The notes below the pieces were generated by a model that worked only from the letters and a program-made list of their open reading frames with translations, was not told the DNA's origin and ran no database searches. DNA of 64,000 bases from Candidatus Symbiothrix sp. (lineage in GTDB: Bacteria; Bacteroidota; Bacteroidia; Bacteroidales; Azobacteroidaceae). The position numbers and the translations under genes are program-made. Of this stretch, positions 544-51,337 are shown one piece after another. Position 1 is the first letter of the stretch. Each line of letters begins with the position of its first letter. The DNA is taken from positions 4,516 through 68,515 of the forward strand of contig JAISKM010000087.1 in assembly GCA_031261285.1 (NCBI GenBank), written 5' to 3'.

Positions 544-1446
544 ATGAAAACATTTAATTTCAGGAGATTGCGGAGCAAGTCCGCAATGACATTTGCGTTA
601 GCGATTGCCTGTGTTCTGGTAACCGGTAACTGTTCACCGGTAACTGCCCAAGTAGCCATTGGTGGGGATGGCACCGTAACACCCGGTGCGTTGTTAGATT
701 TATCACAAGCCACTAATGCCGGCGGCTTGTTGTTACCCCAAATTGTAAGTGCAGACACAGCTACTGCCGTATTGAAAAAGCCGGGGATGCTGGTTTACAA
801 CAAAACGGACGGAAAAATTTATGCCTACAACGGTTCTGCCTGGAGTGCCGGCGGTGGAGGTAGTGAGCCTTATCCCAACCCCTGGCCCAAAACTTGCGGC
901 GGTTATGTAAAGGGTGCGTCAGGTACTCGTTATCCGATTGGTAGTTATCCTTATGCCCAAAATGACTTGAAAAACTTGTGCTGGACGCTAACGAACCTTG
1001 TTGAGGCTGGCGCGTCTTATACTTCTTATTCAGGACAGGACAATTCTCGTGGATATTATTACAGTGCAGATGTGGCTTCCGATCCGGAAACCGATATTTG
1101 CACGCAAAAACTTGGTGGCACTTGGCGAATGCCTAACATTGACGACTGGGAATTGTTACAGATCGGTGCTGTTGACGTGAATTATAACGACCTACTAAAC
1201 AACTGGGTATATGATAGACCTGCGCTAGGAGGAAATGTGCAAGACTGGGCGGGTTCATATTCTAGCGGGACGCGATATAATGATTGGGGCGTTGCATCCT
1301 ATTATAGGGTACGCGATCGGACTGACTTGTGGCGTATTCCAATGGATAACCTTGCCGGTGCCAATCTTGCCGCTGCTGACGGGTTGCAAGCAGGTATTCA
1401 AATGAATCATTTTCACGGGAATATACGTTGTGTACGTGATTTGTGA
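544..1446 (+). CDS. Secreted FISUMP (Fibrobacter succinogenes major paralogous)-like domain protein
   Basis: Signal peptide, GALLDL...GGLLLP N-terminal motif, GYYY, WRMPNIDDW and terminal IRCVRD motifs. Confidence 0.7.
   Translation: MKTFNFRRLRSKSAMTFALAIACVLVTGNCSPVTAQVAIGGDGTVTPGALLDLSQATNAGGLLLPQIVSADTATAVLKKPGMLVYNKTDGKIYAYNGSAWSAGGGGSEPYPNPWPKTCGGYVKGASGTRYPIGSYPYAQNDLKNLCWTLTNLVEAGASYTSYSGQDNSRGYYYSADVASDPETDICTQKLGGTWRMPNIDDWELLQIGAVDVNYNDLLNNWVYDRPALGGNVQDWAGSYSSGTRYNDWGVASYYRVRDRTDLWRIPMDNLAGANLAAADGLQAGIQMNHFHGNIRCVRDL
563..590 (+). repeat. CGTC-type REP palindrome, in frame in signal peptide
   Basis: ggagattgcggagcaagtccgcaatgac (stem ttgcgga/tccgcaa) encodes RRLRSKSAMT. Confidence 0.8.
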
Positions 1447-1570
1447 GTTTAACCCAGAAAAATAAATCTTTATAATTACGATTTTTGCATTTTTTCAGAA
1501 AATAGTTGGTAGTTTCTAAAAAAATGCTTCACCGCGTGTTTGGCGATGACAATGGGGGGGTGATTAGTTT

Positions 1571-1696
1571 CATCCCGTTGGGGATGATACCAGCCCCCCC
1601 AACCCCCCTCAAGGGGGAAATGGTTGCATACCTCCGGCATGCGGGAATGGTCGACGAACATTGTTTTCTACCGAGCTACTATTCCTATCGGAATGC
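1571..1696. repeat. Intergenic nested REP cluster
   Basis: catcccgttggggatg, cccccccaacccccctcaaggggga and attcctatcggaatgc palindromes. Confidence 0.7.
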
Positions 1697-1734
1697 AGAG
1701 AACAAACAAATTAAATTTATAAAATTACAAACAA

Positions 1735-2125
1735 ATGAAAAAAATAAAATTAGTTATGGGATTGCGGGTCAAGCCCGCAATGACATCATCATCGCTGCGG
1801 ATCTGCTCCGCAATGACATCATCATTGGTGCGGATTACATCCGGGATGACACTGTTCGCGATAATCTGCTTGTTGGTAACTGGTAACTGTTCACTGGTAA
1901 GGCTATGCGTCGTTGACGGATGAAGAAAAAGCCGGCTGGCAAGGAACATCTTCTCTGGCAGGTTTTCGTCATAGCAGCGGCACGTGGGTAAGTTGGGGTT
2001 ACAGCGGTTGGTGGTGGAGTAGTTCGGCAGCAAATAAAGGCTTCACTAATGACGATGGCTCCTGGACTACCCCAGCGAACGCGACCGGCTCGTGGTTCAC
2101 GGTGCGCTGTGTGCGTGACATCTAA
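1735..2125 (+). pseudogene. FISUMP paralog remnant: leader fused out of frame to the C-terminal tip
   Basis: 1735-1900 resembles the 544 leader (LLVTGNCSLV vs VLVTGNCSPV); from 1901 another frame reads GYASLTDEEKAGWQG...GWWWSSS...FTVRCVRDI. Confidence 0.7.
1758..1850 (+). repeat. Three tandem CGTC-type REP units
   Basis: gggattgcgggtcaagcccgcaatgac / tgcggatctgctccgcaatgac / tgcggattacatccgggatgac. Confidence 0.8.
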
Positions 2126-3115: not shown

Positions 3116-3126
3116 GTCTAATGGGA

Positions 3127-3217: not shown

Positions 3218-6200
3218 ATGATTTTATTCTTTAAAACGCTGAATGATACTATTTTAGCAGTTGATGCGACGCAAAGATTAGAGTCGGCGGACTTGAAAAA
3301 ATTACTGTGGCTTTTTGGCGATGCCGAATTGCTGAAAGATGAAAGTGTAAAAGGCTTTTTGGTAGGTCCTCGTGCCGAAATGGTGACGCCGTGGAGTACG
3401 AATGCGGTAGAAATCACGCAAATCATGGGTATTGAAGGCATTGTGCGCATCGAGGAATTTCAGATAGTAGCCCCCTCTAACTCCCCCACAGGGGGAGAAC
3501 CGGAGAGAGAGATTGAGTATGATCCAATGTTGCAGCGTGTGTATAATGGTATTGGTCAGGATATTTTTACTATCAATAAAACTCCCGAAGCTATCATTGA
3601 GCTGACTGATATTCAGGCATATAACGAAAAAGAAGGCTTGGCTTTAAGTCCCGAAGAGGTAGATTATCTGAATGATGTGAGCCAAAAAATCGGTCGTTTG
3701 CTGACCGACAGCGAAGTGTTTGGATTTTCACAAGTCAATTCGGAACATTGCCGTCACAAGATTTTTGGTGGCACATTCAAAATCGACGGCGTGGAAAAAG
3801 AACTATCGCTGTTTGAGTTAATTAAAAAGACATCCAAAGAGCATCCTAATTTCCTGATTTCCGCCTACAAAGACAATGTCGCCTTCAATCAAGGTCCCAA
3901 AATAGAACAATTTGCACCGGCAAGTCCCGAAAAACCTGATTTTTTCCAAACGGAAACCATCGAATCGGTGATTTCGCTGAAAGCAGAAACGCACAATTTT
4001 CCAACCACGGTTGAGCCGTTTAACGGTGCTGCAACAGGCACGGGCGGCGAAATCCGCGACCGCTTAGGTGGAGGAAAAGCATCGCTTCCGATTGCGGGAA
4101 CGGCAGTTTACATGACAAGCCCCCCAACTCCCCTCAAGGGAGGCATGAAACCTCGCAAATGGTTGTATCAAACGCCCGAACAAATCCTGATCAAAGCTTC
4201 AAACGGAGCATCTGATTTTGGGAATAAGTTTGGACAACCTTTGATTTGTGGCTCTGTGTTGACGTTTGAACACGAAGAAAATGGGAAGCAATACGGCTAT
4301 GATAAGGTGATTATGCTCGCCGGAGGGGTTGGATACGCAAAGAAAAGCGATGCCTTGAAAGGCGAAGTAAAGCCGAACGAAGAAGTCGTCCTGCTGGGTG
4401 GCGATAATTACCGTATTGGCATGGGTGGAGGTGCCGTAAGTAGTGTGGACACAGGCAAATACACCAGCGGCATTGAACTGAATGCCGTCCAGCGTGCCAA
4501 TCCGGAGATGCAGAAACGCGTGGCTAACGTGATTCGCGCGCTCTCGGAATCAAAAAATAATCCGATTGTGTCAATTCACGACCATGGTGCCGGCGGACAC
4601 TTGAACTGCCTGTCGGAATTGGTCGAAACAACCGGAGGAAAAATCCAAATGGATGCGCTCCCGGTGGGCGACCCAACGCTGTCGGACAAAGAAATCATCG
4701 GCAACGAAAGTCAGGAACGCATGGGGATGGTGATGAAAAAAGATGCCGTCGACTTTGTGCAAAAAATTGCTGACCGTGAACGCTCGCCGATGTATGTCGT
4801 GGGCGAAACGACCAACGATGAACGCTTTGTGTTTGAACGCAAAAACGGACAAAATCCGCTGGATATGCAGTTGAGCGATTTCTTTGGAAAGCCGCCGCGC
4901 ACGATTATGGCGGATGTGACGGTGGAAGAAACATATAAATCCCCACAATACAATGGGATAGACGTAGGGGCGACCCTTGTGGTCGCCCACAACGGCGGCA
5001 ATCCCCTACAGACATACATTGAAAATGTATTGCAGTTGGAAGCCGTGGCGTGTAAGGATTGGTTGACAAACAAAGTTGACCGTTCGGTGACGGGCAAAGT
5101 GGCTCGTCAGCAATGTCAAGGCGAGATTCAGTTGCCGTTGAGCGATTTGGGTGCGGTGGCACTCGATTATCAAGGCAAAGCAGGTATCGCAACGAGTATT
5201 GGTCACGCGCCGCAGGTGGCGTTAGTGGATGCGGCTGCGGGTTCGGTGATGGCGATTGCGGAGGCGTTGACAAATTTGGTTTTTGCACCGTTGACGCACC
5301 AACTGAAAGGTGTGTCGTTGAGCGCGAATTGGATGTGGCCATGTCGCAACAAAGGGGAAGATGCTCGTCTGTATCAGGCCGTTGAGGCGTGTTCGGACTT
5401 TGCGATTGCGCTCGGCATCAACATTCCGACCGGCAAAGATTCGCTGTCGATGACGCAAAAATATAGCCTCTCCCCGACCCCCTCCACAAGAGGGGGAGTA
5501 GAGAAAGTAATGGCTCCCGGCACAGTAATTATTTCGGCTGCTGCGGAAGTGTCTGATATTAAAAAGATTGTATCTCCTGTGTGGGTCAATAATCCTGCAT
5601 CGGCTCTTTATTATATAGATTTCTCCTCTGATAATTTGCAGTTGGGCGGTTCGGCGTTTGCACAATCGCTGAATGCGGTGGGCGAAGTTGCCCCAACAGT
5701 GAAAGATGCTAATTATTTCAAAACGGCTTTCAACACGATTCAAAACCTGATTGAAAACGGTTTAGTGCTGGCAGGTCACGATATTTCGGCAGGCGGTTTG
5801 GTAACAGCCTTGCTGGAAATGACTTTTGCAAACGTGAAAGGCGGTTTGGATGTTAATTTGGAGGGCATCAACGAATCCGATTTAATAAAAATTTTGTTTG
5901 CAGAAAATCCGGGTGTATTGTTGCAAACAGCAGATATTCAGGCATTTGAGAAATTGCTAACAGACAACGGCATTGGTTTTGCAAGAATTGGTAAACAAAT
6001 TGACAAACGACAAATTACCCTCACAAAAGGCGCTGTGACGCAAGATTTGGACATTGATGCTTTGCGTGATGTTTGGTATAAATCCTCCTATTTGTTAGAT
6101 CGCAAACAATCGGGCGAAGCAAAAGCCGAAGAACGGTTTGACAATTACAAAAAACAACCGTTAGCGTTTGATTTCACAAATTTGCAGGGGATTGCGGATC

Positions 6201-7075
6201 AAGTCCGCAATGACGATACCGTCGTAGGGGCGAACCCTTGCGGTCGCCCAATTCTTCCATCCATCCGCCCCATTCTTTCATCCACCCGCCCTATTCATCC
6301 ATCCGCCCACCCAATTAAAGCGGCAATCATCCGCGAAAAAGGCACGAATGGCGAACGCGAAATGGCATATTCGCTGTACCTTGCAGGATTTGACGTAAAA
6401 GATGTGCACACAACGGATTTGGTTACAGGACGTGAAACATTGGAGGATGTGAATTTCATTGTCTTCTGCGGCGGATTTTCTAACTCTGACGTACTTGGTT
6501 CGGCGAAAGGCTGGGCGGGTGCGTTGCTTTACAATGAAAAGGCAAAATCGGCATTGGATAAATTTTATGCGCGTCCCGACACATTGAGTTTGGGCGTTTG
6601 CAACGGCTGTCAGTTGATGGTCGAACTGAATTTGTTGCAGTTGAAAGGCAATCATGAGTCCAAAACGCTGCCAAAAATGTTACACAACGATTCACATAAA
6701 TTCGAGTCGGAATTTGTGTCGGTAGCGATCCCGGAAAATAAATCAGTCATGTTTGGCAGTTTGTCAGGCTCAAAATTAGGTATCTGGGTGGCTCACGGCG
6801 AAGGAAAATTCAGTTTGCCGTTGGCGGAAAATCAATACAATGTGGTGGCGAAGTACGCTTATCATAGTTATCCTGCCAATCCGAATGGCTCGGATTATGA
6901 TGTCGCAGCGTTGGCATCGCCGGACGGTCGCCATTTAGCAATTATGCCGCACTTGGAACGGTCGATTTTCCCGTGGCAATGGGCGCATTATCCGGCAGAG
7001 CGCAAAGACGATAAAGTTACTCCATGGATTGAAGCATTCACGAATGCACGCCAATGGATTGAAAAACAACCGTAG
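3218..7075 (+). CDS. purL: Phosphoribosylformylglycinamidine synthase (large, single-chain)
   Basis: NSEHCRHKIF, KAETHNFPT, IHDHGAGG, GVCNGCQ and MPHLER motifs; 1285 aa. Confidence 0.97.
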   Translation: MILFFKTLNDTILAVDATQRLESADLKKLLWLFGDAELLKDESVKGFLVGPRAEMVTPWSTNAVEITQIMGIEGIVRIEEFQIVAPSNSPTGGEPEREIEYDPMLQRVYNGIGQDIFTINKTPEAIIELTDIQAYNEKEGLALSPEEVDYLNDVSQKIGRLLTDSEVFGFSQVNSEHCRHKIFGGTFKIDGVEKELSLFELIKKTSKEHPNFLISAYKDNVAFNQGPKIEQFAPASPEKPDFFQTETIESVISLKAETHNFPTTVEPFNGAATGTGGEIRDRLGGGKASLPIAGTAVYMTSPPTPLKGGMKPRKWLYQTPEQILIKASNGASDFGNKFGQPLICGSVLTFEHEENGKQYGYDKVIMLAGGVGYAKKSDALKGEVKPNEEVVLLGGDNYRIGMGGGAVSSVDTGKYTSGIELNAVQRANPEMQKRVANVIRALSESKNNPIVSIHDHGAGGHLNCLSELVETTGGKIQMDALPVGDPTLSDKEIIGNESQERMGMVMKKDAVDFVQKIADRERSPMYVVGETTNDERFVFERKNGQNPLDMQLSDFFGKPPRTIMADVTVEETYKSPQYNGIDVGATLVVAHNGGNPLQTYIENVLQLEAVACKDWLTNKVDRSVTGKVARQQCQGEIQLPLSDLGAVALDYQGKAGIATSIGHAPQVALVDAAAGSVMAIAEALTNLVFAPLTHQLKGVSLSANWMWPCRNKGEDARLYQAVEACSDFAIALGINIPTGKDSLSMTQKYSLSPTPSTRGGVEKVMAPGTVIISAAAEVSDIKKIVSPVWVNNPASALYYIDFSSDNLQLGGSAFAQSLNAVGEVAPTVKDANYFKTAFNTIQNLIENGLVLAGHDISAGGLVTALLEMTFANVKGGLDVNLEGINESDLIKILFAENPGVLLQTADIQAFEKLLTDNGIGFARIGKQIDKRQITLTKGAVTQDLDIDALRDVWYKSSYLLDRKQSGEAKAEERFDNYKKQPLAFDFTNLQGIADQVRNDDTVVGANPCGRPILPSIRPILSSTRPIHPSAHPIKAAIIREKGTNGEREMAYSLYLAGFDVKDVHTTDLVTGRETLEDVNFIVFCGGFSNSDVLGSAKGWAGALLYNEKAKSALDKFYARPDTLSLGVCNGCQLMVELNLLQLKGNHESKTLPKMLHNDSHKFESEFVSVAIPENKSVMFGSLSGSKLGIWVAHGEGKFSLPLAENQYNVVAKYAYHSYPANPNGSDYDVAALASPDGRHLAIMPHLERSIFPWQWAHYPAERKDDKVTPWIEAFTNARQWIEKQP
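3471..3502 (+). repeat. In-frame palindrome in purL (1)
   Basis: ccccctctaactcccccacagggggagaacc, stem ctccccc/gggggag; encodes PSNSPTGGEP. Confidence 0.8.
4120..4144 (+). repeat. In-frame palindrome in purL (2)
   Basis: ccccccaactcccctcaagggaggc; encodes PPTPLKGG; similar to intergenic copy at 1594-1618. Confidence 0.75.
4964..4988 (+). repeat. In-frame GTAG-type REP in purL (3)
   Basis: gtaggggcgacccttgtggtcgccc, stem gggcgacc/ggtcgccc; encodes VGATLVVAH. Confidence 0.85.
5467..5498 (+). repeat. In-frame palindrome in purL (4)
   Basis: cctctccccgaccccctccacaagagggggag; encodes LSPTPSTRGG. Confidence 0.75.
6187..6312 (+). repeat. Composite in-frame insert in purL (5,6): CGTC REP + GTAG REP + 3x21-bp tandem repeat
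   Basis: ggggattgcggatcaagtccgcaatgac (6187-6214), gtaggggcgaacccttgcggtcgccc (6224-6249), then ILPSIRP/ILSSTRP/IHPSAHP. Confidence 0.85.
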
Positions 7076-7096
7076 GGGCAACCCTTGTGATTGCCC
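7072..7096 (+). repeat. GTAG-type REP supplying the purL stop codon
   Basis: gtaggggcaacccttgtgattgccc; TAG at 7073-7075. Confidence 0.8.
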
Positions 7097-7103
7097 GTTA
7101 AAT

Positions 7104-7197
7104 AACCAAATCCATATTCCTGTTTAAGGCGTATTGATTTGGTGTTAAAAAATAGATGATACATGGGGACACCCCTCATGTAGCGAAGCTTTTGTGT
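7104..7197 (+). promoter_or_regulatory. Polysaccharide-operon leader with ops/JUMPstart-like element
   Basis: Hairpin catggggacacccctcatg followed by gtagcgaagcttttgtgt; near-duplicate at 18023-18114. Confidence 0.6.
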
Positions 7198-8374: not shown

Positions 8375-8501
8375 AAGCCTTACATAACCTAGCCCAACGG
8401 CAACGCCTTGGGTTTTTGTTATTGGTAGAATTATTAATTGGGGGATTGCGGATTCCTGAATCAAGTTCAGGACAGGCACGGCTTCGCCGTCCCGCAATGA
8501 C
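8366..8501. repeat. Intergenic REP cluster including a nested element
   Basis: gtaggctgaaagcct (contains the wbpE stop), agcccaacggcaacgccttgggt, and gggattgcgg[..tcctgaatcaagttcagga..]cccgcaatgac. Confidence 0.75.
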
Positions 8502-8509
8502 AAAAAAAT

Positions 8510-9067
8510 ATGAATTATTTCTCACATGAAACAGCAGTTGTAGACCCCGATTGCACGATAGGTGACGGCACCAAGATATGGCATTTCTCACATTTGATGG
8601 GTGGATGTACGTTGGGCAAAAATTGTGTGATTGCGCAAAATGTGTATATTGCGCCGCAGGTGGTGCTTGGAAATAATGTCAAGGTGCAAAATAATGTGTC
8701 GCTTTACACGGGTGTGACATGCGACGATGATGTGTTTTTGGGTCCGTCGTGTGTGTTTACGAATGTGATTAATCCGCGTGCAGCGATTTGTCGCAAAGAT
8801 GAATTTCAACAAACGCATGTGGGACGCGGGGCGACTATTGGTGCCAATGCCACGATTTTGTGTGGTATCACGATTGGCAACTATGCGTTCATCGGTGCAG
8901 GCGCGGTAGTGACAAAAAATGTACCTGACTATGCCTTAGTAATGGGTAATCCGGCACGTCAAACAGGTTGGATGAACGAAGAAGGCTACAAAACGGAGGG
9001 GATTCCCGCCTGCGCGGGAATGACAGCCATACAATCCTGCGCGGGAATGACAGGTCACAATGAATAG
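8510..9067 (+). CDS. wbpD: Hexapeptide N-acetyltransferase, WbpD/WlbB-like
   Basis: [18 protein letters not shown] and [13 protein letters not shown] motifs; C-terminus is REP-derived. Confidence 0.88.
8998..9051 (+). repeat. CGTC-type REP (ATTCCC-N8-GGGAAT) plus partial copy forming the wbpD C-terminus
   Basis: ggggattcccgcctgcgcgggaatgac ... cctgcgcgggaatgac encodes GIPACAGMT...CAGMT. Confidence 0.85.
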
Positions 9068-10109
9068 GATAAAATTCGCCGTAGTCGGCTACGGACACAT
9101 TGGCAAACGTCATGCAGAGATGATTTCGCGCAATTCCGATGCCGAATTGGTTGGTTTGTGTGACATTGACCCGTTGGCAATAACCCGTAGGGGCGAACCC
9201 TTGCGGTCGCCCAATCCCTCGCAGTTGCCCAATTACCAATTATCGGCAATCCCGTTTCATTCATCAATTGATGAGTTGTTGCAAAAAACGGATGCAGATG
9301 TTGTAAATATTTGTACGCCAAACGGGTTTCATGCTGCGTATGCCGTCAAAGCCTTAGAAGCAGGCAAGCACGTGGTGATTGAAAAACCGATGGCACTCAC
9401 GACGCTCGATGCCGAACAGGTGATTGAGGCATCAAAAAAAGTCAATAAACACATTTTTTGCGTGATGCAAAACCGCTATTCTCCGCCTTCGGTGTGGATC
9501 AAAGATTTAGTAGCATCAGGCAAATTGGGACAGATATATATGGTGCAGCTGAATTGCTATTGGAATCGCGATGCGCGCTATTACAAACAAGGCAATTGGC
9601 ACGGCACAGCCGATTTGGATGGCGGCACGTTGTTTACGCAGTTTTCGCACTTTATTGACATATTATATTGGTTGTTTGGTGATATTACGAATATTCAAAC
9701 TCGGTTTAACGATTTCAATCATAGCGATTTAACGGCATTTGAGGATTCCGGCATTGTTAATTTTGACTTCGTCAACGGCGGAATGGGTTGTTTGAATTAT
9801 TCGACGGCTGTGTGGGATAAAAATTTGGAAAGCAGTCTGACGCTAATTGCCGAAAATGGCAGCGTCAAAATTGGCGGACAATACATGAATGAAGTGAAAC
9901 AGTGTCATGTCAAAGATTACGAAATGCCAAATTTGGCGCCAACCAATCCGGGCAATGATTATGGTGCCTACAAAGGTTCGGCGCAAAATCATCACTTTGT
10001 GATTGAGAACGTGATCAATGTTTTGAATGGGAAAGCAGAAATTACAGCGACAGCCCAAGAGGGTTTGAAAGTGGTGGAGATAATAGAAAATATATACAAA
10101 TTAAAATAA
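9060..10109 (+). CDS. wbpB: Gfo/Idh/MocA oxidoreductase, WbpB/WlbA-like
   Basis: [24 protein letters not shown] and [14 protein letters not shown] motifs. Confidence 0.85.
9187..9212 (+). repeat. In-frame GTAG-type REP in wbpB
   Basis: Identical to 6224-6249 but read as RRGEPLRSP. Confidence 0.88.
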
Positions 10110-13577: not shown

Positions 13578-14798
13578 ATGCCTCACTCGCAAGAAATAAA
13601 AATTGCAGTCATCGGATTAGGCTATGTCGGACTGCCTTTAGCACGCTTATTTGCAATCCAATACTCCGTTGTGGGTTTTGATATTAATGAAAAACGCGTG
13701 GACGCGTTGGCAACGAATCGTCATTGCGTTGCGGGCTGCGACCCGCAATCTTACCCGCAATCCCCTGATGGCTTGTCTTATTCCGGCAACATAGACCACA
13801 TTAAGGACTGTAATTATTACATCATCACCGTCCCAACACCTGTAGACAAAGATAATCGTCCCGATTTAACAATTTTGTTGAACGCCACTCAAACCGTTGG
13901 TCAGGTGCTCAAAAAAGGCGATACTGTGATTTATGAATCGACCGTATATCCGGGCTGCACGGAAGAAGAATGCGTGCCTGTGTTAGAAAAAACGTCGGGG
14001 TTAAAATTCAATGTGGATTTTTTTGTGGGCTACAGTCCGGAGCGCATCAATCCGGGCGACAGAGAGCACACGGTGGAGCGGATAAAAAAAGTAACGTCAG
14101 GATCCACGCCGGAAACAGCCGAGCAGGTGGATGCACTTTATTCTTCTGTGATTTTGGCAGGTACGCATTTAGCGCCGAGTATTCGCGTGGCTGAAGCAAG
14201 TAAAGTGATTGAAAATGCTCAACGCGACATCAATATTGCGTTTGTCAATGAGGCGAAAAAGATTTTTGACACACTGGGGATTGATACCAACGCTGTGTTG
14301 GAAGCAGCCGGCACGAAATGGAATTTTATGCCTTTCAAGCCGGGATTAGTTGGCGGTTATTGCATTGGTGCAGCGACTTATTATCTGGCTCATAAGGCTC
14401 AAAACAGCGATTATTATCCCGAAATTATTTTGGCGGGTCGACAAATGAACGAAAGTATGGGTGCCTATTTTGCTTCGGAAGTGGTAAAAAAAATGATTCG
14501 GCAAGGTATTCCGGTCAAAGGGGCAAACATCCTTGTTTTGGGCATCACTTTCAAAGAAAACAATCCCGATGTGCGTAATAGTAAGGTCGTAGATGTGATT
14601 AAGGCGTTGCAAGAGTATGGTATGAACATTACGATTTACGATCCAATCGCAAATCCTGCAAACGTGCAGCGCGAATATGGCTTGGTGAGTCTGTCCGAAA
14701 TGCCCACAGAAAAATTTGATGCGGTAGTGAAAACTGTGGCACACCAAGCGCTTGAGAATATACCGTTGAATAGTGAGGTAGTTTATTTTATCAAATAA
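13578..14798 (+). CDS. wbpA: Nucleotide-sugar (UDP-GlcNAc) 6-dehydrogenase, WbpA/VipA-like, with divergent motifs
   Basis: GLGYVGLP, YSPERINPGD and KVIENAQRDINIA; catalytic region reads GGYCIGAATY. Confidence 0.8.
   Translation: MPHSQEIKIAVIGLGYVGLPLARLFAIQYSVVGFDINEKRVDALATNRHCVAGCDPQSYPQSPDGLSYSGNIDHIKDCNYYIITVPTPVDKDNRPDLTILLNATQTVGQVLKKGDTVIYESTVYPGCTEEECVPVLEKTSGLKFNVDFFVGYSPERINPGDREHTVERIKKVTSGSTPETAEQVDALYSSVILAGTHLAPSIRVAEASKVIENAQRDINIAFVNEAKKIFDTLGIDTNAVLEAAGTKWNFMPFKPGLVGGYCIGAATYYLAHKAQNSDYYPEIILAGRQMNESMGAYFASEVVKKMIRQGIPVKGANILVLGITFKENNPDVRNSKVVDVIKALQEYGMNITIYDPIANPANVQREYGLVSLSEMPTEKFDAVVKTVAHQALENIPLNSEVVYFIK
13720..13765 (-). repeat. In-frame CGTC-type REP in wbpA (opposite orientation)
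   Basis: gtcattgcgttgcgggctgcgacccgcaatcttacccgcaatcccc; encodes RHCVAGCDPQSYPQSP. Confidence 0.8.
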
Positions 14799-39267: not shown

Positions 39268-39329
39268 TGCCAAAACAGGGAATGAAACGTTGCCAAAACA
39301 GGGAATGAAATGCTGCCAAAACAGGGAAT
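39268..39329 (+). repeat. 23-bp tandem repeat (2.7 copies) upstream of AAA gene promoter
   Basis: tgccaaaacagggaatgaaaYGY units. Confidence 0.8.
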
Positions 39330-41325: not shown

Positions 41326-42255
41326 ATGGGTGATTATAAATTCGCATCAAAAAAATTTAATCTCCTTTTTACCGGTGCAAACGGCTTCCTCGGCAAAAAT
41401 ATCCAGCCGCTTTTAGAAGCAGACGGTTACGTCATTTCTAAGTTAGACATTGCAAATGCCGACATTGAATGTAATATCAGCAAAGAAATCCCCAATTTCA
41501 ATACGCGCCATTATGATCTTGTGCTTCATGCTGCCGGTAAAGCCCACGTTGTGCCGAAAACGGAAGCCAAGAAGCAAGCCTTTTTCGACATCAATTATCA
41601 AGGAACAGTTAATCTGTGTAAGGCATTAGAAAAAATCGGTTTGCCTCAATCTTTTATATTTATTAGCACCGTAGCGGTTTATGGTTGCGATTTTGGCGAA
41701 AACATTACGGAAGAGCATCCATTAAATGGTGATACACCTTACGCGTTAAGCAAAATTCAAGCAGAAAAATACCTGACAGAATGGTGTCGTGAGCACCATG
41801 TGATTCTGTCGATCATTCGTCCATCGTTGATTGCGGGACCAAACCCTCCGGGTAATTTGGGCGACATGATTAAAGGAATAAAAACAGGACGCTATGTAAA
41901 TATTGCCGGCGGTAAAGCAAAGAAAAGTGTGCTGATGGTGCAAGATATTGCTCGTTTAGTGCCTTTGTTGGCTGAAAAGGGAGGTGTCTATAATGTGTGT
42001 GACGATGAACAGCCGACCTTTGCCCAATTAGCCGAATTAATTGCACAACAACTGAATAAAAACTCTCCTTTGAATATTCCCTATTGGTTGGCAAAATCAA
42101 TGGCGTTGGTTGGCGACTGTCTTGGCAAAAAAGCTCCCATCAATTCGTTGAAACTGAAAAAGATAATGGCGTCTTTGACTTTCAACAATGCAAAAGCAAA
42201 AAGAGAGTTGAATTGGCAGCCACTTTCGGTGTTGGATAATTTCAAAATAAAATAA
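41326..42255 (+). CDS. NAD-dependent epimerase/reductase
   Basis: TGANGFLG, HAAGKAH and YALSK motifs. Confidence 0.85.
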   Translation: MGDYKFASKKFNLLFTGANGFLGKNIQPLLEADGYVISKLDIANADIECNISKEIPNFNTRHYDLVLHAAGKAHVVPKTEAKKQAFFDINYQGTVNLCKALEKIGLPQSFIFISTVAVYGCDFGENITEEHPLNGDTPYALSKIQAEKYLTEWCREHHVILSIIRPSLIAGPNPPGNLGDMIKGIKTGRYVNIAGGKAKKSVLMVQDIARLVPLLAEKGGVYNVCDDEQPTFAQLAELIAQQLNKNSPLNIPYWLAKSMALVGDCLGKKAPINSLKLKKIMASLTFNNAKAKRELNWQPLSVLDNFKIK

Positions 42256-42299: not shown

Positions 42300-42358
42300 C
42301 ACTGCAAAATTACATGATAATTTGCAGCAACACTGCAAAATTACATGATAATTTGCAG
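42300..42358. repeat. Two copies of a 28-bp palindromic operator-like sequence
   Basis: cactgcaaaattacatgataatttgcag x2, immediately after -7 box 42292-42299. Confidence 0.8.
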
Positions 42359-44988: not shown

Positions 44989-45273
44989 ATGCCACGCTCA
45001 CAAGACATAAAAGATTTTATCCGCGAACACCAAGCTCTGTTTTGGTATTCGCCCGAAGACAAGTGCGAAACGGTAAGCGACGAACTGCTGGTGGAAACGA
45101 TATTGAATTACGGCGATATGTCTGCCGTAGTAAAATTATTTCGACTTATGGGAATAAAAAAAGTGGCAAAAATATATTTTTCCTCTATCAATCGTAGTGA
45201 AAGAAGTAAAAATAATTACCATGAATTGACATCAAATTATTTCACTTTATTATTTAATCGCTATGCACATTGA
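44989..45273 (+). CDS. Small protein, putative antitoxin partner of the AbiEii-like gene
   Basis: LFWYS...LVETILNYGD motif; overlaps the downstream gene; -7 box at 44978-44985. Confidence 0.6.
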   Translation: MPRSQDIKDFIREHQALFWYSPEDKCETVSDELLVETILNYGDMSAVVKLFRLMGIKKVAKIYFSSINRSERSKNNYHELTSNYFTLLFNRYAH

Positions 45274-45703
45274 GATATTATCAGATAAACAGCAAGAATT
45301 GTTGTCGTTTGTTTCACAATTCAAACGTAGTTTTTATTTGGTTGGAGGCACGTATCCGGTAACTCATCCTGTTAAATTGGATACCATCATTTCGATGCCA
45401 TCCTTGTTGTCGCTGGCGGCAATGAAGGCGTTTGCTTTGGGCAGGCGAACCAAATGGAAAGATTATGTTGATCTTTATTTTTTGTTGAGAGATTCTTTTA
45501 CGGTACAGGAAATTTCTGATGAAGCCGAAAAGATATTTGGAGATCTATTTTCTGAAAAATTGTTTAGGCAACAATTAGCTTTTCACGCAGACATTGATTA
45601 TCGTGAGCAAGTGGATTTCTTGCCGGGCTTTGAAGTCGGTGCAGAAGAAGTAAAAGATTTTTTGATTGATAAGTCGTTAGAACTAAATCTTGGTGTTGCA
45701 TAA
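45263..45703 (+). pseudogene. AbiEii-type nucleotidyltransferase with in-frame internal deletion
   Basis: FYLVGGT directly followed by YPVTHPVK; HRxSxDxD region absent; MKAFALGRR..KDYVDLY retained. Confidence 0.7.
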
Positions 45704-45722
45704 TTTTAAAATAGAAAAAATA

Positions 45723-45788
45723 TAACAACAGTATTTTCAATGGTTATCGACCAAAAAACCACTTAACAACAGTATTTTCAATGGTTAT
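45723..45788. repeat. 25-bp direct repeat x2, operator-like
   Basis: taacaacagtattttcaatggttat at 45723 and 45764, upstream of -7 box 45816-45823. Confidence 0.8.
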
Positions 45789-45844
45789 TTTATTGTTTTA
45801 TCCAAGAAAAATGACTACCTTTGCAGCATGAAAAACAAAGAAAC

Positions 45845-46156
45845 ATGGATTGGCAAAATTTAAGTAATGCAGCTGCAATAGCAGAAATCGGAAAGCGATT
45901 AAAAGCTTACCGCCTGAAGAAAAAACTGACGCAAAAAGATTTGGCTGAACGAGCTGGAATCAGTTTGTTTACAGTGGCGCAAATGGAAAAAGGAAGACCC
46001 GTTTCCATCACTATGTTGCTCCCTGTGCTACGAGTACTGCGTTTGTTGGATAATTTGGAGCAACTTGTGCCCGAAATTGGCATAAGCCCAATAGAACTGA
46101 TGAAACTGAAAGGCAAAACGCCCCAACGAATAAAACCACCTAAAGAGAAATTGTGA
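45845..46156 (+). CDS. XRE HTH antitoxin (HipB-like)
   Basis: LTQKDLAERAGISLFTVAQMEKG; similar to 18477 protein. Confidence 0.85.
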   Translation: MDWQNLSNAAAIAEIGKRLKAYRLKKKLTQKDLAERAGISLFTVAQMEKGRPVSITMLLPVLRVLRLLDNLEQLVPEIGISPIELMKLKGKTPQRIKPPKEKL

Positions 46157-47621: not shown

Positions 47622-47828
47622 ATGAAATTTGCTAAACAGATTAAAGAAAGACGTTCTGTGCTCGGAATCAACCAACAAGATTTGGCTGATATTTCCGGTG
47701 TGGGCTTGCGCACGATTAAGCAAATAGAGGTAGGAAAAGGGAATCCGTCTATTAAAACACTTTCGGCAATTTTAGATGTGTTGGGAATGGAATTAGTCAC
47801 AAAAATTAAAACAACATCTGAATTATGA
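47622..47828 (+). CDS. HTH antitoxin (HipB-like)
   Basis: INQQDLADISGVGLRTIKQIEVG; -7 box at 47589-47596. Confidence 0.85.
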   Translation: MKFAKQIKERRSVLGINQQDLADISGVGLRTIKQIEVGKGNPSIKTLSAILDVLGMELVTKIKTTSEL

Positions 47829-48154
47829 AGCAAGCTCAAGTGTATATGAATAAGCTATTGGCTGGAACGTTGAGAAAACAGGATGATGGAACTTATTTAT
47901 TTCGTTATAACGATGTTTATTTTGTAAACCCGGATTTGTCTGCCATAAGTTTAACATTACCTAAGACCAAACAGGAGTATCATTCCAGTGTGCTATTTCC
48001 TTTTTTCTTTAATATGCTTTCGGAAGGGGTGAATAAACAGGTGCAGTTACGGCAATTCAAATTAGACGAAGATGATTATTTTGGCTTGCTTTTGGCTACA
48101 GCAGGCAATGATACGATTGGAGCCATTACCGTCAAAGAATTGAAAGAAGCATGA
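47825..48154 (+). CDS. Stand-alone HipA N-terminal domain protein (HipS-like)
   Basis: ISLTLP, LFPFFFNMLSEG and DTIGAITV motifs. Confidence 0.82.
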   Translation: MKQAQVYMNKLLAGTLRKQDDGTYLFRYNDVYFVNPDLSAISLTLPKTKQEYHSSVLFPFFFNMLSEGVNKQVQLRQFKLDEDDYFGLLLATAGNDTIGAITVKELKEA

Positions 48155-49116
48155 TTGCCGCACCTGATACATATACTCCCATAACGCTCAAAAGAGTGTT
48201 TGACACTAAAAAAGTCAGCCCTCTGCTTGCTTTTTCCAATGTGGCAAGTCAGCGCAAAGTCATTGATGAAAATATTGGCAAAATCTCCATCTCCGGCGTG
48301 CAGGAAAAATTGTCTGTGATTATTGACCATGAGAAAATCATTTTAACGCCCGAAGGTGTGCAGGGGACGCATATTATTAAAGCTGCACCTGATTATAAAC
48401 GATTGAAAAATCGCAATCAATTACCTGCCAATGAACACCTTACGATGCAAATTGCGCAACAGGTTTATGGACTTTCGGTAGCTGAAAATGCCATGGTTTT
48501 TTTCCGAAATGGCGAAGCCGCGTATATCACGAAACGATTTGATATTGACAAAAATAAGTGTAAAATCAAGCAAGAGGATTTTGCTTCTTTGTCACAAAAA
48601 ACCAAAGAAACGGATGGCGACAATTTCAAATATACAGGCGATTATGTCACTGCCGGACAACTTATTAAACAGTTTGTAGCGGCTTGGCAAATTGAAACTG
48701 TCAAGTATTTTCGCCTGATAGTGTTCAACTATCTTTTTGCCAATGGCGATGCCCACTTAAAGAATTTTTCTTTACAGCAAACGACGACCGGCGATTATCT
48801 TTTAACGCCTGCTTATGATTTGTTGAATACTTCATTACACGTTAATGATGAAGATTTTGCGTTAAGCGGAGGGTTGTTTGATAAACAACATTGTTCTGAA
48901 ATATATCTGCAAACGTCGCATCCATGTCAGGAAGATTTTATGACGTTTGGGACGTTGTTGGAGATTCCGAAAGTAGTCATAAACAAGACGCTCAATAAAT
49001 TTACAACCCCACAAGGTTTAGTAACAGAATTAACGGAAAGATCATTCCTTAATGAGCAATTAAAACGCATGTACTTGAGAAGCTATCAAGAGCGATTGAG
49101 CCGGTTACAACGCTAA
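48151..49116 (+). CDS. HipA C-terminal kinase (HipT-like)
   Basis: SISGVQEK, ANEHLTMQ, KRFD, NGDAHLKNFS and LTPAYDL motifs. Confidence 0.85.
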   Translation: MIAAPDTYTPITLKRVFDTKKVSPLLAFSNVASQRKVIDENIGKISISGVQEKLSVIIDHEKIILTPEGVQGTHIIKAAPDYKRLKNRNQLPANEHLTMQIAQQVYGLSVAENAMVFFRNGEAAYITKRFDIDKNKCKIKQEDFASLSQKTKETDGDNFKYTGDYVTAGQLIKQFVAAWQIETVKYFRLIVFNYLFANGDAHLKNFSLQQTTTGDYLLTPAYDLLNTSLHVNDEDFALSGGLFDKQHCSEIYLQTSHPCQEDFMTFGTLLEIPKVVINKTLNKFTTPQGLVTELTERSFLNEQLKRMYLRSYQERLSRLQR

Positions 49117-49143
49117 ATTTATCAGATAAAAAACATAGTGTAA

Positions 49144-50160
49144 ATGGAAAATAATTTATTGCAATATTTATTAGTAACAATCATCCTCTTCGCAGGGATG
49201 CTCCTGTACTTCAAACTTGCTGATAAATACAACATCATCGACAAGCCCAACGAACGGAGTTCGCACAACTATATCACGTTGCGCGGCGGCGGCATCGTGT
49301 TTTGGCTGGCAGGCGTGCTTTATGCCGCATTTAACTTGCCCGAAAGCCTCTATTTTCTCATTGGGCTGACGCTCATTTGCGGTGTCAGTTTTTGGGACGA
49401 TGTGTCGTCGTTGCCTAATAAAGTCCGCATAGTGATTCATTTTCTGTCTATCTCGCTGGTATTCTATGGGTTAGGACTGTTTGTATTGTTGCCTTGGTGG
49501 CTGATAGTGATCGCCTACATCTTTTTCGTCGGCATCATGAATGCCTACAATTTTATGGATGGTATCAATGGCATGATCGGATTGTACAGTTTGGTGGTGT
49601 TAATCGCGCTCCAGTATGTTAATTATCAGGAGGCATTTCATTGCGGGCACCCACAAGGGATGCCCCTACGCCTGCAATCCCCTGCCATTAATCCTGATTT
49701 CATTAATTACGCCATCCTCGCTTGCATCGTCTTTCTCTTTTTCAATTTCCGAAAGCGTGCCAAATGTTTTGCCGGCGATATAGGTGCTTTGGGTCTCGCT
49801 TTTTGGATGGTTACTTTGTTGATACAGTTGATGTTAGCAACCAATTCTGTCATTTGGATTTTGTTTTTGGCAGTTTACGGCGTCGACACTGTTTGCACGA
49901 TTTTACATCGTTTATACTTGAAACAGAATATTTTTCAAGCGCACCGTTTGCATTTTTATCAGATATTAGTCAACGAACGGAAACAGTCGCACCTGACAGT
50001 GGCTGCGGGTTATGCAGGCGTTCAGTTACTCATTTGTGGTATCGTCATTTATGCGTATGAATGCGGTAACGAAATCGAACAATGGTGCATTGGAGCAGCG
50101 ATTATTATGGTATTATTGCTTGTTTATTTATTGAAATTCAAAAAAACAGATGAAAAATAG
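49144..50160 (+). CDS. MraY/WecA-family undecaprenyl-phosphate sugar-1-phosphate transferase
   Basis: DKPNERSSH, FWDD, NAYNFMDGING and FAGDIG motifs. Confidence 0.9.
   Translation: MENNLLQYLLVTIILFAGMLLYFKLADKYNIIDKPNERSSHNYITLRGGGIVFWLAGVLYAAFNLPESLYFLIGLTLICGVSFWDDVSSLPNKVRIVIHFLSISLVFYGLGLFVLLPWWLIVIAYIFFVGIMNAYNFMDGINGMIGLYSLVVLIALQYVNYQEAFHCGHPQGMPLRLQSPAINPDFINYAILACIVFLFFNFRKRAKCFAGDIGALGLAFWMVTLLIQLMLATNSVIWILFLAVYGVDTVCTILHRLYLKQNIFQAHRLHFYQILVNERKQSHLTVAAGYAGVQLLICGIVIYAYECGNEIEQWCIGAAIIMVLLLVYLLKFKKTDEK
49643..49669 (-). repeat. In-frame GTAG-type REP in the WecA-like gene (opposite orientation)
   Basis: Reverse complement gtaggggcatcccttgtgggtgcccgc; encodes CGHPQGMPL. Confidence 0.82.
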
Positions 50161-51337
50161 CCGTATCTATCTCTCTTTGGCACATATAGGTGGTCGCGAA
50201 CAAGAATTTATTCAACAAGCGTTCGACACCAATTGGGTCGTACCTATGGGACCCAATGTGAGCGGTTTTGAACAGGATTTAGTGCAGTTTTTGGGCAACG
50301 ACGCACAAGTCTCGGCGTTGTCTTCGGGTACTGCTGCCTTGCATCTTGGACTGATTTTGTTGGATGTAAAACCCGACGATGAGGTTCTTTGTCAAAGTTT
50401 CACTTTCGCAGCCTCCGCCAATCCAATCGTTTATTTGGGTGCTAAACCCGTATTCGTGGACAGTGAACGCGATACCTGGAATCTATCGCCCGAACACTTG
50501 GAACGCGCCATTCAAGACCGAATCGCCAAAGGCAAAACCCCTAAAGCAATCATCGTTGTGCATGCCTATGGCATGCCGGCGAAAATGGATGAAATCCGAA
50601 CGATTGCCAATCGCCACAAAATACCTCTGTTAGAAGATGCAGCGTCGGCTTTAGGCTCGACTTACAAGGGTATTCATTGCGGCACCTTGGGCGAATTGGC
50701 AGCCTTGTCGTTCAATGGCAATAAAATTATTACCACATCGGGTGGTGGTGCGTTGGTGGCTACCCATCAGAGGATTGCGTGTAAAATTGTAGGGCAATGC
50801 CCGCAACGCAATGACGGCAATCTAATTAAAAAAGCACGCTTTCTGGCAACTCAAGCGCGGGATGCCGCACCGCATTACCAACATTCTCAAATTGGCTACA
50901 ACTACCGCATGAGCAATATAGTGGCAGGAATCGGACGTGGACAAATGTTAGTGCTGCCCGAACGAATTGCCCAACGCCGGGCAAATAACCAATTCTATCG
51001 AAAGCATTTAGCCGGCATTGAGGGCATCACATTCCAAACAGAACCCAATTCAGACTTTTATTCCAACTATTGGCTGACATCCATTCTGATTGACCCCGAA
51101 AAAACAAACGGCATCACTCGCGAAACCCTGCGCCTCGCCTTAGAAGCCGCCAACATCGAATCACGCCCCCTCTGGAAACCGATGCACCTGCAACCCATCT
51201 TTGCCGATTGCCCCTTTTACGGCGACGGTACCGGCGAAGACCTCTTCAACAAAGGTCTCTGCCTCCCCTCCGGCTCTATCCTCACCGAACAAGATTTGCA
51301 ACGTGTAGTAAAAGTAATCAAACAAATACTTGTATAA
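50150..51337 (+). CDS. DegT-family aminotransferase (PglE/EpsN-like)
   Basis: LSSGTAALHL, EDAASALG, SFNGNKIITTSGGG and GYNYRMSN motifs. Confidence 0.9.
   Translation: MKNSRIYLSLAHIGGREQEFIQQAFDTNWVVPMGPNVSGFEQDLVQFLGNDAQVSALSSGTAALHLGLILLDVKPDDEVLCQSFTFAASANPIVYLGAKPVFVDSERDTWNLSPEHLERAIQDRIAKGKTPKAIIVVHAYGMPAKMDEIRTIANRHKIPLLEDAASALGSTYKGIHCGTLGELAALSFNGNKIITTSGGGALVATHQRIACKIVGQCPQRNDGNLIKKARFLATQARDAAPHYQHSQIGYNYRMSNIVAGIGRGQMLVLPERIAQRRANNQFYRKHLAGIEGITFQTEPNSDFYSNYWLTSILIDPEKTNGITRETLRLALEAANIESRPLWKPMHLQPIFADCPFYGDGTGEDLFNKGLCLPSGSILTEQDLQRVVKVIKQILV
50772..50815 (+). repeat. In-frame CGTC-type REP in the PglE-like gene
   Basis: ggattgcg...cgcaatgac with an inner insert; encodes RIACKIVGQCPQRND. 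Confidence 0.7.

Follow-up and report, generated by a model that had tools for sequence, protein, structure and literature searches.

The stretch analysed here (the window) comprises 64,000 nt from a termite-gut Bacteroidales close to Candidatus Symbiothrix dinenymphae, and it includes purL (ORF 3218-7075) and a number of sugar-biosynthesis genes. Short hairpin repeats (REPs) of three families, designated A, B and C, are scattered through it: we count ~22 REP-derived segments over 15 loci, of which 16 lie inside seven intact ORFs, in several frames and in both orientations, with nine in purL alone. The features are as follows, L001, L002 and L003 being related loci used for comparison.

564..590, + strand: family B REP GAGATTGCGGAGCAAGTCCGCAATGAC in the leader of ORF 544-1446, reading RRLRSKSAMT, TGTC tag on the - strand
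1595..1622, + strand: family C REP, intergenic
1758..1850, + strand: three family B units repeated in tandem every 33 nt, within a frameshifted paralogue's leader
3471..3500, + strand: family C REP in purL, a 30-nt indel against L002 (L003, 18 nt; L001, 51 nt)
4119..4147, + strand: family C REP in purL, reading SPPTPLKGGM, common to all five Symbiothrix-clade orthologues
4964..5008, + strand: family A REP GTAGGGGCGACCCTTGTGGTCGCCC then a remnant B arm, in purL, reading VGATLVVAH
5465..5499, + strand: family C REP in purL, a 30-nt insert in the window and L001, absent from L002 and L003
6188..6214, + strand: family B REP in the purL interdomain linker, reading GIADQVRND, exact CGTC on the - strand
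6224..6249, + strand: family A REP (the 26-mer GTAGGGGCGAACCCTTGCGGTCGCCC) in purL, reading VGANPCGRP
6250..6316, + strand: ~3.4 tandem copies of the A REP 3' arm, 21-nt period, in purL, encoding ILPSIRPILSSTRPIHPSAHPI
7072..7096, + strand: family A REP at the end of purL, its GTAG tag giving the TAG stop at 7073-7075
8441..8502, + strand: family B REP interrupted by other hairpins within its loop, intergenic, directly upstream of ORF 8510
8999..9050, + strand: B2 variant GGGATTCCCGCCTGCGCGGGAATGAC plus a copy of its 3' arm, in a hexapeptide acetyltransferase gene, overlapping the start of the next gene
9187..9233, + strand: family A REP (26-mer) plus an 18-nt arm repeat, in Gfo/Idh/MocA ORF 9060-10109, reading RRGEPLRSP
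13719..13767, - strand: composite family B REP RHCVAGCDPQSYPQSP in a TviB/WbpA-like dehydrogenase gene, with ~14 conserved residues lost alongside
49639..49683, - strand: family B REP with a family A REP nested in its loop, in a GT4/WecA-like ORF, exactly 45 nt, HCGHPQGMPLRLQSP
50764..50816, + strand: composite family B REP with a short GTAG hairpin, in a LegC/PglE-like aminotransferase gene

Three families of hairpin repeats

Family A consists of GTAG, an 8-bp stem and a CTTGY loop (GTAG GGGCGACC CTTGT GGTCGCCC; DNA fold -10.6 kcal/mol, z = -4.6), and the single-stranded DNA folds of the hairpins are stable in general (z-scores -4.5 to -5.2). All five copies in the window start with CGTAG and are singletons, not dimers. 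The short stem-loop behind an unpaired 5' GTAG is that of GTAG REPs, which are mainly extragenic, whereas here intact ORFs contain four of the five copies, the remaining one overlapping a stop codon. The original prediction reported an identical 26-mer, GTAGGGGCGAACCCTTGCGGTCGCCC, in two genes, and it is exact at 6224-6249 and 9187-9212 (0 matches in 100 shuffles); these two copies share a 35-nt stretch with 94% identity and a rare extra A seen in only 5 of 145 sampled family A copies, but as the consensus is constant across phyla, identity between copies is weak evidence of recent spread. The inverted relative expected in the WecA-like gene is present at 49645-49669 (- strand, reading HCGHPQGMPL), nested in the loop of the inverted B element. 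The same element is translated in more than one frame and from either strand, which bears out the proposal that DNA rather than peptide is the repeated unit.

Family B carries a CGTC or TGTC tag (TGTC at 564 and 1758), an 8-bp stem beginning with AT and a CTTGA loop, as in the unit on the - strand at 6187-6215, CGTC ATTGCGGA CTTGA TCCGCAAT CCCC. It agrees with the definition of CGTC REPs (terminal CGTC, TGTC or CCTC; stem of 8-9 bp that opens with AT; loop of 4-5 nt; short 3' tail), the tail being CCC(C) rather than CCA. Copies of GATTGCGG..CCGCAATGAC occur at 564-590, 1758-1850 (where the frameshifted paralogue consists of ORF 1735-1923, then 1913-2125), 6188-6214, 8441-8502, 13719-13767 (- strand) and 50764-50816. 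This gattgcgg..ccgcaatgac family had been assigned to a 'FISUMP' leader, purL, the WbpA-like gene and the PglE-like gene; it is present in all four, but the copies at 13719 and 50764 are composites rather than simple units (50764..50816 is 83% complementary to 13719-13771), and the 'FISUMP' label of ORF 544-1446 is not confirmed by Pfam and NCBIfam. The ATG at 584-586, within the first copy, is an alternative start codon of that ORF. In Ca. S. dinenymphae, family B units are paired as inverted dimers of 98 nt whose spacer is conserved, both in intergenic DNA and in frame within a gltD-like gene, and two such dimers in L002 (1383-1480 and 1959-2056) share 94 of 125 positions; this REPIN feature is absent from the window, where a search for the spacer gave 0 hits.

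A third family, overlooked in the original prediction, is family C, a C/G-run hairpin (CCCCC..CCCCCTCAAGGGGG) with copies at 1595, 3472, 4119 and 5472. Across all families the copies range from perfect to decayed, none of the hairpins has a match in Rfam, and orientation is biased, 14 of 18 independent loci sharing the strand of the leading, coding strand. A generic scan for a tag plus any hairpin found 10 cases against 6.1 expected from shuffles and hence no enrichment: the significant signal is the specific REP families, not tagged hairpins as such. The window's long repeats are all fragments of paralogous genes. No REP lies in the 35-kb low-GC portion of the locus (~14-49 kb), which may mean that REP activity is old or hinges on the target sequence.

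Filled and empty sites in orthologous genes

Orthologue alignments gave clean indels between lineages: REP sites are filled in some and empty in others, and one site may carry different REPs in different lineages. Against orthologues from Candidatus Symbiothrix relatives the inserts measure 30, 30, 39, 45, 45 and ~48 nt, all multiples of three. The purL product is 57 aa longer than the usual ~1228 aa, with indels of 30, 30 and 39 nt and, in the linker, a segment of >87 nt. For example, the site at 4964..5008 holds an A REP in the window and a B-type REP in L001, yet is empty in L002 and L003, as would follow from insertions that recurred independently; the family C copy at 4119..4147 stands where more distant orthologues have a loop of their own, and in the linker (residues ~985-1033) each lineage has its own REP mosaic. 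In the sugar-biosynthesis genes, the B2 variant and its arm copy lengthen the acetyltransferase C-terminus by 20 aa, the Gfo/Idh/MocA insert is 45 nt (15 aa) against L002 and L003 and 14 aa against PDB 3q2i, the LegC/PglE-like insert is ~16 aa against C. jejuni PglE, and the 45-nt GT4/WecA-like loop insert is absent from all 14 homologues aligned.

In the source metagenome, unitigs end at REPs, where k-mer depth is 500-1000 against ~20 elsewhere (25-50x); this would suit a high copy number, although the repeat may also be carried by other members of the community. Such breaks, like the mirror-image chimera seen in one related contig (L126), might also be expected if the inserts were chimeric joins at repeats or another assembly or amplification artefact of a metagenome-assembled genome. 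We find this barely conceivable, as the invaded ORFs are all open and align with orthologues from end to end, assemblies made independently (L002 and L003; L124 and L126) agree in their inserts and in the sites these occupy, and the same family A 25-mer occurs in the cultured isolates Pseudoflavonifractor and Geitlerinema.

Could the hairpins be retained for a role at the DNA or RNA level (for instance in pausing transcription, stabilising mRNA or binding gyrase), with the peptides as a side effect? Compensatory changes preserve pairing, both at stem position 8 of family B, where some copies have A-T and others G-C, a difference also found between the window and L002, and in the family A superfamily, with 32 alternative stems; at one dehydrogenase site a B REP is kept in genes only ~70% identical to the window protein, and many copies lie at gene ends. 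However, presence or absence differs among the closest relatives at the same sites, the intragenic positions follow no common logic, and the decayed copies and the lack of an Rfam match also speak against a conserved element, making this improbable.

The original prediction left open an active system that diversifies protein loops, and the lineage-specific purL linker mosaic, together with the several invaded genes that make surface polysaccharide, would suit programmed diversification. We regard this as very improbable. Neither a reverse transcriptase, nor a template/variable repeat pair, nor a site-specific recombinase was found in the 30 ORFs scanned, including all those without an obvious role, or beside the sites; the most invaded gene, purL, encodes a cytoplasmic housekeeping enzyme, whereas the variable glycosyltransferase region (~14-49 kb) is the part free of copies; the inserts are a small fixed set of sequences rather than variable ones; the flanking paralogue is frameshifted; and the insertion in the TviB/WbpA-like dehydrogenase goes along with a loss of conserved residues, at a site where one relative has a 46-aa deletion. 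The REPs probably survive only where selection tolerates them, and a loop-diversifying system has no support.

The second option of that prediction, tolerance under weak purifying selection, fits best. In intact genes, the net length of each intragenic copy is divisible by three; such copies avoid REP frames containing stops, and sit in linkers, surface loops, termini or the n-regions of signal peptides. Insertion itself may well be blind to frame, the in-frame pattern being what selection has left, and relaxed purifying selection in a host-associated lineage would allow many copies to persist. Some copies provide a stop codon and possibly start codons. For annotation, this means that REP peptides (VGATLVVA, RRGDPCGRP, GRPQGSPL, GIAGQARND, HCGLDPQSP, PPTPLKGG) inflate protein lengths, and that REPs can create apparent start or stop codons, break assemblies and simulate 'conserved motifs' in unrelated proteins.

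Mobilisation and spread

We consider it probable that three families of 25-30-nt non-autonomous hairpin REPs have colonised long-resident genes as tolerated selfish DNA, with family A mobilised in trans by a Y1 transposase. Copies arrive as DNA insertions, often beside or inside the loop of an earlier REP, and their 3' arms can afterwards be duplicated in tandem. REPs associated with RAYT carry a GTAG tag (PMC3733652, PMC6006769), and a Y1 (RAYT-type) transposase encoded elsewhere might act on the single-stranded hairpin DNA of family A. The link to RAYT enzymes that had been predicted for both tags stands for GTAG but not for CGTC: CGTC REPs reportedly have no transposase gene linked to them (PMC3733652), so the link is limited to family A at most, and no transposase lies beside family B copies in the window or related loci. 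As predicted, the window encodes no Y1/RAYT gene by motif scan and Pfam, and none was found in L001-L003 or L124-L127 either.

The only Y1 gene near an A REP outside the window, in L123, is not cognate, as 63 relatives of it have no A REP within 600 bp. Descent from a DDE insertion sequence, as a MITE, would be at odds with the absence of any duplication between filled and empty sites; the flanks of 145 copies likewise show neither target-site duplication nor a conserved target, apart from C or T at position -1.

Spread by replication and recombination machinery (template switching at hairpins, gene conversion or slippage) in place of a transposase deserves more weight than the other alternatives, and it would account for several features: the tandem 3' arms with 18- and 21-nt periods, which resemble arm arrays in other phyla, the nested and composite copies, the deletion beside the REP in the TviB-like gene, the resemblance at the Gfo/Idh/MocA site between the L002 target GCAGTTGCC and the REP arm GCGGTCGCC, and CGTC REPs that have no known transposase. 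Slippage, however, explains local arrays but not how copies came to lie in unlinked genes between unrelated flanks, the 98-nt family B dimer moves whole, spacer included, and the conserved unpaired GTAG with its hairpin is exactly the module that RAYT enzymes recognise (PMC6006769). We therefore hold such spread to be unlikely, and mobilisation of family A in trans the better account.

Five family A copies in the 64-kb window compare with 0 in ~103 kb from seven related loci, and among the sampled Symbiothrix relatives family A is confined to the window lineage. At least 14 phyla carry the exact 25-mer (GTAG GGGCGACC CTTGY GGTCGCCC), its flanks being unrelated, and 32 stretches of IMG/VR viral contigs contain it as well. 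In other phyla it also forms arm arrays and inverted dimers with a conserved spacer, and of 103 copies there, 36 lie within open frames that reach at least 200 codons; nine such frames were checked with Pfam and six proved to be real genes, among them those for PriA, a Ser/Thr kinase, a GT2 glycosyltransferase and TilS, which the repeat enters in frame. This raises the possibility, which we offer tentatively, that family A is a pan-bacterial, horizontally transferred miniature element tolerated inside genes, not a lineage-bound REPIN. If so, a conserved mobiliser in trans or phage-assisted spread would be implied, along with recent acquisition by the symbiont. An identical GTAG REP over many phyla and viral contigs bears on whether REP systems are strictly vertical.

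Comparison with known systems

Di Nocera, De Gregorio and Rocco (2013, PMC3733652) described GTAG and CGTC REPs within genes, for example in Opitutus terrae and Rickettsia conorii. Family A is like the GTAG REPs of that survey in its unpaired GTAG, 6-9-bp stem and short loop, and family B like its CGTC REPs in its CGTC/TGTC tag, 8-bp AT stem, 5-nt loop and short tail; units are likewise single, dimeric or grouped, some in frame in known genes, at termini and linkers. The present case differs in its very high density, mostly intragenic, in the family B tail, and in its phylum: CGTC repeats were reported in Bacteroidetes, but GTAG repeats were not listed there (PMC3733652).

REPIN/RAYT systems (Bertels and Rainey 2011, PMC3116915; PMC6006769 on the structure and subclasses of TnpA-REP) share the GTAG tag and hairpin module, and their inverted dimers with a conserved spacer have counterparts in family B of Ca. 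S. dinenymphae and in family A of other phyla. REPINs are, however, described as lineage-specific, vertically inherited and overwhelmingly extragenic, whereas the family A 25-mer crosses phyla, its copies in the window are singletons, and no RAYT was found here.

The present repeats resemble the small dispersed repeats of filamentous cyanobacteria in being tiny hairpins that enter one another and occasionally genes, though sequences and hosts differ. Those repeats are reportedly hairpins of ~20-30 nt, and are said to have been described by Elhai et al. in Genome Research in 2008.

A parallel in behaviour is found in the Rickettsia palindromic elements (RPEs), reportedly described by Ogata et al. 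in Science in 2000. In both cases selfish palindromic DNA sits in frame in housekeeping genes of a host-associated bacterium, ORFs are kept, extra peptides fall in permissive places, and presence or absence differs between related species; here the invaded ORFs are intact, their domains are complete, and their function may be retained. Classic RPE-1 is longer, at 100-150 bp against 25-30 nt for the units in the window; phylum and sequences also differ, and here three families coexist and nest in one another. RPEs are mentioned in PMC1779305, PMC10969869 and PMC3733652, and RPE-4 and RPE-6 are CGTC-type units (PMC3733652). As the host is a member of the Bacteroidales, the likeness to RPEs is one of analogy and not of membership, and since intragenic GTAG/CGTC REPs and RPEs have both been described, the window presents selfish hairpins of an already known type. 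It offers a second case, independent of Rickettsia, of how much selfish DNA essential enzymes tolerate and where, in a lineage whose orthologous filled and empty sites can be compared directly.

REP families in a capsule locus of Candidatus Symbiothrix

The closest PurL proteins (83-86% identity) come from Candidatus Symbiothrix dinenymphae and termite-gut 'Bacteroidia', and the window is contained, at 96% of sampled words, in one sequencing run only, a termite gut metagenome. Downstream of purL lies a capsule/O-antigen locus with embedded toxin-antitoxin genes: an HTH gene with an intact HipA (18477-20022), a truncated AbiEii (45263-46156), a second HipA (47825-49116), its N-terminal domain in an ORF of its own (47825-48154) that overlaps ORF 48151-49116 by 4 nt, and an MNT/HEPN pair (51378-52005). 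A ~100-nt non-coding element occurs twice (7099-7197 and 18018-18114; 78% identity across 161 aligned columns), one copy preceding the polysaccharide operon and the other a HipB-like gene; it combines a CCAAAT...ATTTGG hairpin with an invariant CCTCATGTAGCGAAGCTTTTGTGT box, has no Rfam match, as is true of the whole window, and could act as a leader or as a regulatory RNA. Gene fragments are duplicated within ~14000-49000 (34087-34178 matches 35213-35304; 39066-39257 matches 41326-41483), and short tandem arrays that bear no relation to the REPs lie at 39267-39329 (23 nt x 2.7), 20883-20922 (12 nt x 3.3, perfect) and 42300-42358 (31-nt unit x 1.9, perfect). An AT-rich inverted repeat, (AATTAAA)n with 45-nt arms, between the convergent asd-like and beta-helix genes (55052-55155) is probably a bidirectional terminator.

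Three families of REPs were inventoried in the window by half-site mismatch scans and nhmmer profiles; a blastn-short self-comparison missed all but one family, its cut-off (E <= 0.5) being too stringent for repeats of 25 nt.

REP families of the window
Family A: GTAG, 8-bp stem GGGCGACC and CTTGY loop
4964, family A
6224, family A
7072, family A
9187, family A
49645, minus strand, family A
Family B: GGGG ATTGCGGR TCAAG YCCGCAAT GAC on one strand, CGTC/TGTC ATTGCGG.. CTTGA ..CCGCAAT CCCC on the other
564, family B
1758-1850, family B, three tandem units with a period of 33 nt
6188, family B
8441-8502, family B, interrupted by nested hairpins
8999-9050, B2, a variant of family B
13719-13767, minus strand, family B, composite
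49639-49683, minus strand, family B, its loop enclosing an A element
50764-50816, family B, composite
Family C: CCCCC..CCCCCTCAAGGGGG, missing from the original prediction
1595, family C
3472, family C
4119, family C
5472, family C

Of the ~22 REP segments of the window, at 15 loci, 16 fall within seven intact ORFs, three within a frameshifted paralogue's leader and three in non-coding DNA. All three families have a loop of the CTTG/CAAG type. The original prediction had pointed to a 26-mer shared by two genes and read as different peptides, and this is borne out: the copies at 6224 and 9187 are the only two exact matches to GTAGGGGCGAACCCTTGCGGTCGCCC, and none of 100 dinucleotide-preserving shuffles contained one. 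The first copy lies inside a 1285-aa ORF (3218-7075) with the complete large-PurL domain set and a strong match to solved PurL structures, the second inside a Gfo/Idh/MocA oxidoreductase ORF (9060-10109), and the two are translated in different phases, as VGANPCGRP and RRGEPLRSP respectively. The inverted relative (49645-49669) and the GATTGCGG..CCGCAATGAC family were likewise found where they had been placed.

As single-stranded DNA, canonical A and B hairpins fold at -8 to -11 kcal/mol (z -4.5 to -5.2), with weaker folds for the 26-mer variant of A, which has a one-base bulge (z = -2.3), and for family C (z = -0.75). A generic test of GTAG or CGTC followed by any hairpin found no enrichment over shuffles in the window, so the tags by themselves are no evidence. 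The REPs also supply parts of genes: the TAG stop codon of purL is part of the GTAG of the copy at 7072, the ATG in the family-B tail (CAATGAC) could serve as the start codon of both lipoprotein-like paralogues, and arm-derived tandem repeats, originating from the REP 3' arm, follow the A copies at 6224 (period 21 nt) and 9187 (period 18 nt).

Inserts in genes and their reading frames

Indels were judged by aligning the window, as protein and as DNA, with three syntenic loci of relatives (L001-L003, L002 being Ca. S. dinenymphae). PurL of the window has 1285 aa vs the usual ~1228 aa, and clean indels coincide exactly with REPs. These comparisons show that the intragenic REP copies are insertions.

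Inserts in genes of the window, and the same sites in relatives
purL 3471-3500, family C, 30 nt; none in L002, 18 nt in L003, 51 nt in L001
purL 4946-4993, family A, 39 nt; B-type REP at the identical site in L001, neither REP in L002 or L003
purL 5465-5494, family C, 30 nt; insert in L001, none in L002 or L003
purL linker 6159-6316, B, A and arm repeats, >87 nt; B and a different GTAG element in L002, none in L003
Gfo/Idh/MocA gene, 45 nt; none in L002 or L003, +14 aa relative to PDB 3q2i
Acetyltransferase C-terminus, 20 aa; none in L002 or L003
WecA-like gene, 45 nt; none in 14 aligned homologues
LegC/PglE-like gene, ~16 aa; extra relative to C. jejuni PglE

Among the best 120 PurL homologues, only members of the Symbiothrix clade and of two further termite-gut lineages have REP-type inserts. 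The TviB-like dehydrogenase has a canonical inverted B unit (HCGLDPQSP) in termite-gut relatives and a composite B in the window, where ~14 conserved residues are missing at the REP site; the closest relative has a 46-aa deletion there, indicating that REPs also mark places of sequence loss. AlphaFold2 modelled this protein too poorly overall for the model to be used (mean pLDDT 60), with the REP-encoded residues 49-63 below 50.

The units themselves measure 25-29 nt, not multiples of 3, but every net insert within an intact gene is a multiple of 3 when set against orthologues, a check that the original prediction had proposed; bases must therefore have been gained or lost in each surviving event. 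Family A in plus orientation has a single closed frame (xxG TAG), seen solely as the stop of purL, and family B has one closed frame per strand (TGA), neither of which is used within genes. The inserts occupy alignment-variable loops, an interdomain linker, termini and the n-regions of signal peptides. Some genes do not stay intact, as shown by the frameshifted flanking paralogue (1735-2125), which holds a triplicated REP. The pattern of frames and sites is as expected if insertion were blind to reading frame and selection filtered the copies, leaving those in frame.

Coding sequence makes up 87% of the window and holds 16 of the 22 REP segments, so genes hardly seem to be avoided by REPs. Of the two readings first offered, an active system that diversifies protein loops is not supported, and tolerance of selfish REP DNA under weak purifying selection is the best-supported.

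Placement, copy number and the search for a transposase

Eight of the 15 REP loci are in or at purL, and the half-site and profile scans found no REP of any family in ~14-49 kb, a gap with a chance of ~0.45^15 (<1e-5) under uniform placement. This stretch is mostly low-GC and glycosyltransferase-rich (36% GC at 20-48 kb vs 44-45% in the flanks). The gap suggests either that the stretch was acquired later than most REP activity or that AT-rich DNA is a poor target; both fit. Orientation is uneven too: 14 of 18 independent REP loci share one strand (one-sided binomial p = 0.015), which is the coding strand and which GC skew marks as the leading one. Strand-specific insertion into single-stranded DNA could account for this bias, and so could selection acting on mRNA or protein.

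In the source metagenome, unitigs terminate exactly at REPs, where many unrelated flanks meet, and k-mer depth reaches 500-1000 in REP-containing bins vs ~20 elsewhere. Family B also exists as a 98-nt inverted dimer in Ca. S. dinenymphae (L002 1383-1480 and 1959-2056; L003 2415-2512), and its 44-nt spacer is conserved between copies. One copy is intergenic; another, found in L003 too, adds 33 aa in frame to a gltD-like oxidoreductase, immediately ahead of the GxGxxG motif. This dimer behaves like a REPIN, a mobile inverted REP dimer. Family A has five copies in the window vs none in ~103 kb from seven related loci. The copies at 6224 and 9187 share 94% identity across 35 nt and an extra-A variant that is rare across bacteria (5 of 145 copies sampled); they are sister copies made within the lineage of the window. 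A further related locus, L126 (BNTV01000068.1), is mirror-symmetric around ~9960, the genes of one side recurring in reverse order on the other, and looks like a chimera of amplification or assembly.

A scan for the HUH...Y..NP motif and Pfam searches of 30 ORFs found no Y1/RAYT gene in the window or related loci, in agreement with the original prediction for the window. The accompanying claim, that both tags denote RAYT-linked REPs, holds at most for GTAG, usually linked to RAYT genes (PMC3733652), and not for CGTC, which is reported to be linked to no transposase (PMC3733652). In a Sphingobacteriales locus (L123), a Y1 gene (NHVH ... YIHQNP) resembling Bacteroidetes subclass 2.6 (PMC6006769) sits between inverted A-type REPs. 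We compared it with 79 metagenome relatives, 63 of which match the gene substantially; within 600 bp these have other hairpins (GTAGTCCGAAGTC...) or no hairpin, and an A-type REP in 0 of 63. The adjacency in L123 is thus coincidental, and we rejected this gene as the cognate enzyme of family A.

Family A across phyla and comparison with known REPs

One genome per species was scanned for the exact family-A core, GTAGGGGCGA(N)CCCTTGNGGTCGCCC (24 specified bases), yielding at least 120 stretches. With phyla read from record titles, the core occurs in at least 14 phyla, in unrelated flanks and in cultured isolates among others; the phyla include Chloroflexota, Bacteroidota, Bacillota, Pseudomonadota, Acidobacteriota, Cyanobacteriota, Planctomycetota, Patescibacteria, Deinococcota, Desulfobacterota, Bdellovibrionota, Actinomycetota, Latescibacterota and Zixibacteria. 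Flank bias is limited to -1 (C or T, 80%) and +1 (G or T, 83%) in 145 sampled copies. Among the matches listed, loci with the core hold 75 additional GTAG-GGG hairpins, nearly all of the form GGGC..GCCC, whose 8-bp stems pair perfectly and comprise 32 other sequence variants, and open frames of 200 codons or more run across 36 of 103 copies. Pfam placed the REP inside a real gene in six of nine copies checked (PriA, a Ser/Thr kinase, an SBP_bac_5 protein, a GT2 glycosyltransferase, a TilS-deaminase fusion and a HYR-domain protein), and it is in frame in several of these, including PriA, the kinase, the glycosyltransferase and TilS. IMG/VR viral contigs carry the family-A core in 32 stretches and family B in four. 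C-type hairpins (GCTCCCCTCAAGGGGAGC) adjoin A-type REPs in Clostridia (MAGs L010 and L053; L042), and family C may likewise be common to several phyla. A full-text literature search found no paper describing the family-A sequence, and its identity across phyla is the part that deserves follow-up.

Family A has the structure that defines GTAG REPs, and family B that of CGTC REPs, which it matches in its tag, in an 8-bp stem that begins with AT and in a loop of 5 nt. Intragenic GTAG and CGTC units have been described at N- and C-termini and in linkers, and Rickettsia RPE-4 and RPE-6 are CGTC units (PMC3733652). As both kinds are already known inside genes, the REPs of the window belong to a known phenomenon; what sets them apart is their density, three co-resident families that nest in one another, a stop codon and possibly start codons supplied by REPs, and linkers built from arm repeats.
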